From: Chloroflexota bacterium
Lineage (GTDB): Bacteria > Chloroflexota > UBA11872
Direction of reading: 5' to 3'
DNA: 64,000 bases
Assembly (NCBI GenBank): GCA_965263075.1
Contig: CBDHGI010000006.1
Span: forward strand, 3,036,281 to 3,100,280
Both the position numbers and the translations under genes were made by a program. How positions within the stretch are numbered: position 1 is the first letter of the stretch; each line of letters opens with the position of its first letter. The notes below the pieces were generated by a model that saw only the letters and a list, made by a program, of their open reading frames with translations, ran no database searches and was not told the origin of the DNA. Shown in pieces: positions 22,601 to 23,566 of this stretch.

Positions 22601-23566
22601 TCACGCGGCGACGCCGATGTGACTCAATAGGGGAATAATGTCGAATTGATCCTTGACTTCATTCCTAAAGGATCTGTCAAGAGACTGAACTATCGCATTC
22701 GCGATCAGGGCGCATAGAGTCTTAGCTAGATCTTGGATGCTCAGGACAAGTTTTATCAGCGTATCCGCATGATCCGAACCTTGTTGATACATAGTGGTGT
22801 CCTCGTAATTCGATTTGACCCGGATACGGTACAGGTAATCGAACACGGTTGTCGGACCAACAGAATCTGCAATCTTAACTTGCTTCGGTCTACTTAAGCG
22901 AGCTGTTTTCTTACCTGACTTCCGGGCCTGCGTTTTTCTTGCGGATTCCAGCTTGTCTACGATCAATCTGCGCCGCGTCGTATCAAGGCATTGCGCTACG
23001 TGGGCATCCCGCGTAGCTTCGCTTGGACGACCAAGGTTGAGTCCCGAGCGGATGTCCACCCGGCGGTCTGGGATCCCATTCAAGTTTCCCGGGAGATGCT
23101 TCCATCCGTAGTAGCCTCCACGGAGCACTGCGGAGAAGGGACGGGGAAAAAGCCCGTCGACCATGCGATCCGCAGCCGTCTTCGTGAACGCACCATGGGT
23201 CCGTGGCAGGCTTTCAGCAGATCCAGTCGCGGATAAGAAAGTCAGTCCAAAACCATGAACTGCGTAGTATGCCTGCACCGGCAACCAAAGGGCACTTGCC
23301 ATTGCGAAATCCGGCATTTTCTCGACTGGTATTTGTCGCATCAAGCGAAGAGTAAGATGCCCACGCCGCAAGTGCTTCTGGACCGCATCATGGTCGCAGT
23401 GCCGAGTTGGCCTGAGCTTCCGAAAGGCATTCAAGCGCGACTGTTCAGCTCCAAGCGAAGACCCACGCGGCTTCCTCAAGCACCACGCGTCGTTATAGTT
23501 GGAATAAGTGGTGGTCGCAGCTCTACTATCAGAGATGCCGTAGTCCCGAAGGTCAAGTATAGGCAT
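22601..23566 (-). CDS. hypothetical protein (orf321), restriction-linked ORF, third cistron of hsdM-hsdS
   Basis: A 321-codon ORF starting 13 nt after the hsdS stop on the same strand. Composition is varied, and I recognised no family motif. Landmarks are WLPVQAYYAVHGFG, the basic linker ESARKTQARKSGKKTARLSRPKQVK, and YLYRIRVKSNYED. Confidence 0.7.
   Translation of the reverse strand: MPILDLRDYGISDSRAATTTYSNYNDAWCLRKPRGSSLGAEQSRLNAFRKLRPTRHCDHDAVQKHLRRGHLTLRLMRQIPVEKMPDFAMASALWLPVQAYYAVHGFGLTFLSATGSAESLPRTHGAFTKTAADRMVDGLFPRPFSAVLRGGYYGWKHLPGNLNGIPDRRVDIRSGLNLGRPSEATRDAHVAQCLDTTRRRLIVDKLESARKTQARKSGKKTARLSRPKQVKIADSVGPTTVFDYLYRIRVKSNYEDTTMYQQGSDHADTLIKLVLSIQDLAKTLCALIANAIVQSLDRSFRNEVKDQFDIIPLLSHIGVAA

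Follow-up and report, generated by a model that had tools for sequence, protein, structure and literature searches.

What kind of protein is encoded by a gene of no named family that follows the specificity gene of a Type I restriction-modification (R-M) operon, and does it take part in restriction-based immunity? The question is raised by orf321, a minus-strand open reading frame (ORF) downstream of hsdM and hsdS in a Chloroflexota bacterium (lineage UBA11872; assembly GCA_965263075.1, contig CBDHGI010000006.1). The 64,000 nucleotides (nt) of this contig that were analysed (positions 3,036,281 to 3,100,280) are termed the window. A first-pass annotation, made from the letters alone, had described orf321 as an unassignable gene for an R-M-coupled accessory or defence protein. 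Here, we compare orf321 and its relatives at the level of sequence profiles, structure models and gene neighbourhoods. The data point to a divergent HEPN-T protein that recurs beside R-M genes and may serve as a back-up to restriction.

The coordinates, strand, length and ATG start (23566) of orf321 proved to be as first annotated, as did its translation with all landmarks quoted from it. A gap of 13 nt (23579-23567) separates the hsdS stop codon (23582-23580) from this ATG; a Shine-Dalgarno-like AGGAAAG ahead of orf321 overlaps the same stop codon, and the hsdS start in turn overlaps the hsdM stop by ATGA. In line with the hsdM-hsdS-orf321 operon proposed earlier, a scan of the gap between hsdS and orf321 found neither a promoter-like nor a terminator-like site. 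The promoter-like site above hsdM agrees with the consensus at 10/12 positions, and no terminator or stable hairpin was evident 3' of orf321. Membership of orf321 in the hsdM-hsdS transcription unit is supported at the sequence level, and its translation is probably coupled to that of hsdM-hsdS. As had been noted, GC content is nowhere lower in the window than around this gene (GC fraction 0.548-0.560 at 22-24 kb vs ~0.66 elsewhere).

The orf321 family and its HEPN-T-like core

orf321 is a genuine gene, since it has 88 full-length homologues (E values down to 1e-196), a length of ~320 amino acids (aa) that is conserved among them, and a confident, largely helical AlphaFold2 model (predicted local distance difference test, pLDDT, 91.6; predicted template modelling score, pTM, 0.91). 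A profile of 70 relatives searched against 1.84 billion proteins retrieved 825 cluster representatives at E ≤1e-3, 533 of them at E ≤1e-10. The best 150 of the 825 are mostly ~300-340 aa long, and the shorter ones look like fragments. All source names available for family members read 'hypothetical protein'.

Profile evidence of moderate strength identifies orf321 as a divergent, insert-bearing HEPN-T (PF05168/UPF0332-like) protein, and thereby gives a provisional name to the type that the first-pass annotation had left unnamed. Sub-threshold matches to the Pfam HEPN family PF05168 were obtained for 26 of the 66 distant members (best 8e-5), and no other Pfam family recurred. The same family was again the only recurrent one once the insert had been removed (14/39 members, best 3.5e-5), and one relative carries a precomputed PF05168 match. 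Searched against PDB sequences, the family profile gave three top matches that are all HEPN proteins (9xbd, E 0.009; 9xbc, E 0.017; 2hsb, E 0.058). For comparison by hhalign, a control alignment of 36 bona fide UPF0332/PF05168 proteins was used. The full family reached Prob 86% and E 5e-6; after excision of residues 142-235, the values were Prob 87.6% and E 3.5e-6 (P about 4e-6). The insert-free alignment extends through the second half and places LYRxRxRSNY on QDLRNRSDY. In Foldseek, the orf321 model matched 2hsb with a target-normalised template modelling score of 0.70 and prob 0.60, but with E 4.3. The insert-free profile also aligned 9xbd in register among PDB sequences, which adds nothing on its own because E was ~1. 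This insert-free profile had its top match in a mitoribosomal protein of trypanosomatids that contains R-x-R-x-N-Y-D, a match taken as chance. A search of the fetched loci for small HEPN proteins found none.

Within the protein, the putative HEPN core is split (Table 1). Its α1-α3 block contains the string WLPVQAYYAVH, which holds the invariant Y101 (23264-23266), and the likewise invariant H124 (23195-23197). The family-specific insert that follows, of ~100 aa, comprises a β-hairpin, a long helix with a near-invariant L194-x-T196-T197-R198 and a Lys/Arg-rich linker. Beyond it, the model has the motif-bearing helix (residues 241-255) and then long C-terminal helices. Conservation was computed over 128 sequences with a mean column identity of 26%: Y101, H124, R247, R249 and Y254 are invariant, and N253, W94, V97, Q98, Y100 and L194-x-T196-T197-R198 are conserved at ≥90%. 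In register with the HEPN-T signature, Y101 corresponds to the Y of AYYA, H124 to the invariant His of SSHS, and R249-V-K-S-N253-Y254 to R-N-R-S-D-Y. In HEPN-T proteins, an Asp is described to replace the canonical His, and a conserved His elsewhere could contribute to activity (PMC3710099). The conserved residues of orf321 match this published description.

Neighbourhoods of orf321 homologues

The neighbourhood survey covers 109 loci (L numbers below), drawn from a set of species-representative genomes, from metagenomes and by look-up of exact proteins. The first 105 contain 83 distinct homologues, 57 of which have at least 1 kb of upstream sequence; with the window, this gives 58 loci. In 22 of these 58, a restriction-type methyltransferase, HsdS, Type ISP enzyme or BrxL is encoded on the same strand at position -1 or -2 relative to the homologue. 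This count is a lower bound, because the labels derive from seed-based homology and spot checks; it excludes L021, whose automatic 'methyltransferase' label found no confirmation among the Pfam families of the locus.

The partners belong to four types of system. Type I systems occur in the window, L002, L003, L015, L018, L020, L022, L051 and L081, and in the later look-ups L106, L107 and L109; in the window, L002, L003, L015, L018, L020, L022, L106, L107 and L109, the gene is placed next to hsdS, with an AriAB gene and a 47-aa ORF interposed between hsdS and the homologue in L107. In 12 loci, the partner is a large Type IIG restriction-methyltransferase (PADLOC PDLC03596, E = 0), usually accompanied by an HKD-Snf2 helicase-nuclease. 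A Type ISP enzyme (L026) and BREX BrxL (L102) were each found once, and an N6_N4 methyltransferase stands at -1 in L009 and L044 and at -3 in L070. Stop/start overlaps of 4-8 nt recur (L002, L003, L007, L010, L022, L024, L033), and in L022 the homologue overlaps with both of its neighbours, hsdS and hsdR.

A distance tree resolves three groups: the orf321 clade, in which most members are linked to Type I systems and 10 of ~16 loci have the order hsdS-X (X being the orf321 homologue), a clade with mostly Type IIG/HKD-Snf2 partners, and a distant group that is mostly unlinked. The tree shows clades that have co-diversified with their partner systems. The gene after X varies, and may be AlbA_2, hsdR, DUF433-Fic, SIR2-HerA or a toxin-antitoxin cassette.

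An undisturbed gene order, hsdM(HTH)-hsdS-X-AlbA_2/HATPase_c_4-hsdR-YgjP, is found in L002, L003, L018, L020 and L106, where an intact AlbA_2/HATPase_c_4 gene encoding 472-529 aa lies between the homologue and hsdR. The first-pass annotation had placed orf321 in the slot between hsdS and hsdR. Its position after hsdS was confirmed. It is not immediately adjacent to hsdR: an AlbA_2/HATPase_c_4 remnant, a DUF4258 cassette and a Phd/PIN cassette intervene in the window. The remnant is 56% identical to the intact gene of L018 over 61 codons (tblastn, E 2e-7), and the AlbA_2 gene of the window appears to have been displaced by the toxin-antitoxin cassettes. A further ORF, orf230 (21104-21796, minus strand), runs antisense to the Phd/PIN pair without matching any family, and was discarded as probably spurious. 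The YgjP-like ORF matches the Pfam model over its C-terminal part alone (positions 116-200 of 207), and a YgjP-like gene after hsdR is kept in L018, L020, L106 and L109.

Table 1. Positions of orf321, its parts and the surrounding features, counted from the first letter of the window
Feature	Position	Strand	Basis or remark
orf321	22601..23566	-	321 codons, ATG start; unnamed ~320-aa family, split HEPN-T-like core
orf321, N-terminal helical extension	residues 1-58	-	AlphaFold2 model
orf321, HEPN α1-α3	residues 59-139 = 23150..23392	-	hhalign to UPF0332; PDB-sequence profile matches 9xbd, 9xbc, 2hsb
orf321, family-specific insert	residues 140-235 = 22862..23149	-	secondary structure of the model; conservation in 128 sequences
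orf321, R247-I-R249-V-K-S-N253-Y254 motif	22805..22828	-	in register with R-N-R-S-D-Y of HEPN-T
sigma-70-like promoter match TTGCCA-16-TATAGT, TG-extended	26681..26708	-	5' of hsdM start; consensus match only
hsdM	24833..26674	-	Pfam HTH_3 + HsdM_N + N6_Mtase; PADLOC MTase_I 1.7e-146
hsdS (Type I specificity subunit)	23580..24836	-	Pfam Methylase_S
AlbA_2/HATPase_c_4 (Schlafen-like) gene remnant, decayed 5' end	22379..22561	-	~61 codons, in-frame stop at codon 7
DUF4258-family small toxin-like gene	22084..22377	-	Pfam 1.3e-6
66-aa ORF, presumed DUF4258 partner	21887..22087	-	overlaps DUF4258 gene; no family match
PIN/VapC toxin	21444-21830	+	Pfam 1.3e-18
Phd/YefM antitoxin	21198-21443	+	Pfam 3e-13
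hsdR	18111..21116	-	HSDR_N, ResIII/SWI2_SNF2, T1R_D3-like
YgjP-like metallopeptidase-domain gene	17828..18124	-	99 aa; overlaps hsdR 3' end

Further observations concern the hsd genes of the window. HsdM carries an N-terminal XRE-type helix-turn-helix (HTH) at residues 14-49 (26528-26635; HTH_3, 4.8e-8), a fusion that is kept in L015, L018, L020, L107 and L109 and that may allow autoregulation of the kind known from C-proteins. At the DNA level, the window shares 92-94% identity with metagenome contig L015 over hsdM, and again over a stretch that extends from the 3' end of hsdS past orf321 as far as 21631. The hsdS body in between (window 23714-24947 vs L015 6594-7853) does not align at all, which looks like a target-recognition-domain swap between close relatives. 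Upstream of hsdM, an 871-aa ORF on the plus strand (26807-29422) matches no model of Pfam, NCBIfam or PADLOC; as several shorter minus-strand ORFs overlap it in this high-GC DNA, the frame may be spurious and antisense.

Other homologue-bearing loci contain assemblies of separate interest. The slot between hsdS and hsdR is a cargo hotspot: L107 (4911-11562) has a fused PARIS AriAB gene (PADLOC 2.5e-65), the homologue, SIR2 and HerA before hsdR, and in L109 (8142-10240) the homologue is followed by DUF433, Fic and Phd. A recurrent trio consists of the HKD(PLD)-Snf2 helicase-nuclease, the ~1150-aa Type IIG restriction-methyltransferase and the family member, the last two often overlapping by 4 nt (L024 326-7985; also L007, L011, L033, L037, L038, L043, L047, L050, L053, L080 and L096); the three genes may form a system of their own. 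In L007 (4782-5419), the family gene is immediately followed by a complete MNT (NTP_transf_2)/HepT (DUF86 HEPN) toxin-antitoxin pair, so that the locus encodes two different HEPN proteins. L018 (1733-4881) has a CBASS-like cluster (SMODS, bacterial HORMA, AAA ATPase, DUF6602) directly upstream, on the same strand, of hsdM-hsdS-X-AlbA_2-hsdR. L001 (7272-11349) holds an orphan homologue with 61% identity to orf321. A dCTP-deaminase-like gene flanks it on one side, and a divergent class-V aminotransferase gene followed by a DUF4007 gene on the other, a neighbourhood that resembles an SspA/SspB phosphorothioation module.

Candidate roles of orf321

A restriction-coupled accessory or defence role, as the first-pass annotation had proposed, is the best reading of orf321, because the gene belongs to the hsdM-hsdS unit and its homologues recur 3' of R-M methyltransferase and specificity genes. 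By analogy with PrrC, the paradigm of a restriction 'guardian' that is activated upon restriction-enzyme inhibition (PMC3710099, PMC12707154), we propose that orf321 acts as a restriction-linked HEPN guardian RNase in back-up defence, and see an even chance that this is correct. In such a scheme, orf321 would be bound to the methyltransferase/specificity complex and held inactive. A phage that disables the complex, e.g., with an Ocr-, ArdA- or Stp-like inhibitor, would release or activate it, and the pocket of invariant Arg, His, Asn and Tyr would then cut RNA (tRNA, rRNA or mRNA) in a metal-independent manner. Translation would stop, and the infection would be aborted. A guardian-type role has been proposed for restriction-linked HEPN clades by Anantharaman et al. 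(PMC3710099). The presence of PARIS in the same slot of L107 fits with a position between hsdS and hsdR that collects anti-anti-restriction functions.

Several observations weigh against this proposal, beginning with the HEPN assignment itself. orf321 matched no Pfam family at E ≤0.1 or at E ≤10, no NCBIfam family and no PADLOC-DB v2 family at E ≤1; its sole match among PDB sequences was a chance-level histone (E 0.54), and Foldseek searches of the model against PDB and BFVD gave nothing significant, with generic helical proteins on top. The evidence for HEPN thus stays moderate and at profile level, because orf321 itself has neither a database model nor a significant Foldseek match. The chemistry and the mode of activation raise further doubt. 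The canonical His of Rx4-6H is absent, with N253/Y254 in its place, and an Asn replaces the Asp of HEPN-T. HEPN-T proteins include non-catalytic nucleotide-binding examples, so the predicted RNase activity is not assured. PrrC combines an N-terminal ABC-type ATPase with a HEPN domain of the canonical Rx4-6H type, whereas orf321 falls into a different HEPN clade and gave no match to any ATPase or P-loop family among the Pfam, NCBIfam and PADLOC models; unlike PrrC, it has no sensor domain of this or another kind. In addition, three family members used as tblastn queries gave no match among 72,556 plasmids and 50,697 phage records.

The linkage itself has limits. In 33 of the 57 informative fetched loci (~60%), no labelled restriction gene lies within four genes of the homologue, a figure that inherits the lower-bound labelling of linkage. 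Coupling to R-M genes is therefore strong in two clades and not family-wide. Neighbours of the unlinked loci are heterogeneous, including housekeeping genes (UvrC, GlnRS, RecG), transposases, dCTP deaminase with Ssp, and TIR/AIPR genes; neighbour clustering and a Pfam census of 88 neighbours found no recurrent partner in restriction-free loci. Moreover, adjacency of orf321 to hsdS could on its own reflect hitch-hiking, because the slot between hsdS and hsdR also holds unrelated cargo.

These limits lend themselves to another explanation, which we consider unlikely, if the least so of the alternatives: orf321 would be an autonomous abortive-infection or toxin-like HEPN gene that travels in defence islands and in the hsdS-hsdR hotspot, uncoupled from the restriction enzyme. 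The restriction-free loci with no other recurrent partner favour it, as do the PARIS, SIR2-HerA, Fic, AlbA_2 and toxin-antitoxin cassettes carried in the same slot and the orphan copies beside transposases, Ssp with dCTP deaminase, or TIR/AIPR genes. Yet X almost invariably follows directly on hsdS or the methyltransferase gene while the other cargo varies, its stop/start overlaps recur in several unrelated restriction classes, and the phylogenetic clades match partner types. A constitutive, free-standing toxin without antitoxin would also need some other restraint.

A second and doubtful alternative keeps the coupling and gives up the toxin. Here, orf321 would be a HEPN-type subunit without catalytic activity that binds a nucleotide or a nucleic acid and controls the methyltransferase/specificity complex, be it by tuning methylation vs restriction, by mediating restriction alleviation or by sensing nucleotide pools. 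The missing canonical Rx4-6H His would be expected of such a subunit, many invariant Arg would suit phosphate binding, and the gene always follows a modification or specificity gene, not a nuclease gene, with translational coupling. Relatives of HEPN-T include nucleotide-binding non-nuclease domains, namely the C-terminal domain of kanamycin nucleotidyltransferase and sacsin. However, a dedicated subunit is hard to reconcile with more than half of the members lacking a restriction system, and Anantharaman et al. argue that the alternative His of HEPN-T, invariant here as H124, may support catalysis.

Rather improbable, in our estimate, is a new kind of extra subunit in place of a PrrC-like RNase, which would dock on the methyltransferase/specificity modules of Type I, Type IIG/HKD-Snf2, Type ISP and BREX systems alike. 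Its elaborated Arg/His/Tyr pocket would then have a novel activity, e.g., it could sense or modify some nucleotide or DNA signal common to modification-based immunity. The faint YaaC (PF14175) resemblance suggested in the first-pass annotation, which would imply a housekeeping or non-defence role, has a similar length in its favour, and some distant members lie beside UvrC, GlnRS or RecG, but it is very improbable: PF14175 matched none of 136 members (70 close ones at E ≤10, 66 distant ones at E ≤1), PF05168 is the only family that recurs, and a literature search found no paper linking orf321-type proteins and YaaC.

If the guardian proposal is true, orf321 would represent a compact, ATPase-less HEPN effector coupled to several classes of modification-based immunity, and a simple system for studying how a toxic partner is kept in check by a restriction complex and then set free. 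The family occurs in uncultured Chloroflexota, Rhodothermales, Nitrospirota and other lineages. As Pfam, NCBIfam and PADLOC do not cover it, defence annotation of environmental genomes misses it; a seed alignment is supplied for this family of at least 825 cluster representatives.

Relation to known systems

Among known proteins, those of HEPN-T/UPF0332 (PF05168; 2hsb, 1wwp, 1o3u, 9xbd) are closest to orf321. Their core helices α1-α4 can be aligned with orf321 at profile level, and the signature residues are in register: the AYYA tyrosine, the His that follows helix 2, and R-x-[RK]-S-[DN]-Y. orf321 is larger (~320 aa vs ~125 aa), with an N-terminal extension of ~58 aa and an insert of ~100 aa with the TTR motif between α3 and α4, and it differs further by Asn for Asp and by an extra invariant Arg, R247. 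Occasional clustering of PF05168 members with R-M operons has been noted (PMC3710099).

In MNT-HEPN pairs, the HEPN gene has a nucleotidyltransferase partner. orf321 is flanked by hsdS and the AlbA_2 remnant, and NTP_transf_2 is no recurrent neighbour in the family, the MNT/HepT pair of L007 being a complete cassette of its own; without an adjacent nucleotidyltransferase partner, orf321 is not a classical MNT-HEPN pair. With PrrC of the EcoprrI Type Ic locus it has in common that a HEPN-superfamily gene lies next to hsdS within a Type I hsd operon. PrrC models show no sequence similarity to orf321, which also lacks an ATPase domain and is therefore not a PrrC/RloC member. PARIS (AriA/AriB) senses anti-restriction proteins and responds with tRNA cleavage, and its fused AriAB form precedes the homologue in the L107 slot. 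Its folds, an ABC ATPase and a Toprim/DUF4435 nuclease, are unrelated to orf321, and it is not usually an hsdS operon partner.

Stand-alone HEPN proteins in R-M operons, proposed to act as second-line RNases, also include Abi2/AbiD/AbiF, AbiU2, AbiJ, DUF4145, Ymh, ApeA and EC042_2821 (PMC3710099). None of the Pfam and PADLOC models of these families matches orf321, the 70 members searched giving one noise-level AbiU2 match (E 0.065), and both the insert and the N-terminal extension are unique to the orf321 family. HEPN proteins in restriction operons form an established class of at least 16 clades (Anantharaman et al. 2013, PMC3710099). With the concept of a restriction-embedded HEPN known since 2013, the existence of orf321 will not surprise a specialist; the gene is best filed as a HEPN-T branch without a model in current databases, and offers a tractable candidate for guardian-type coupling.

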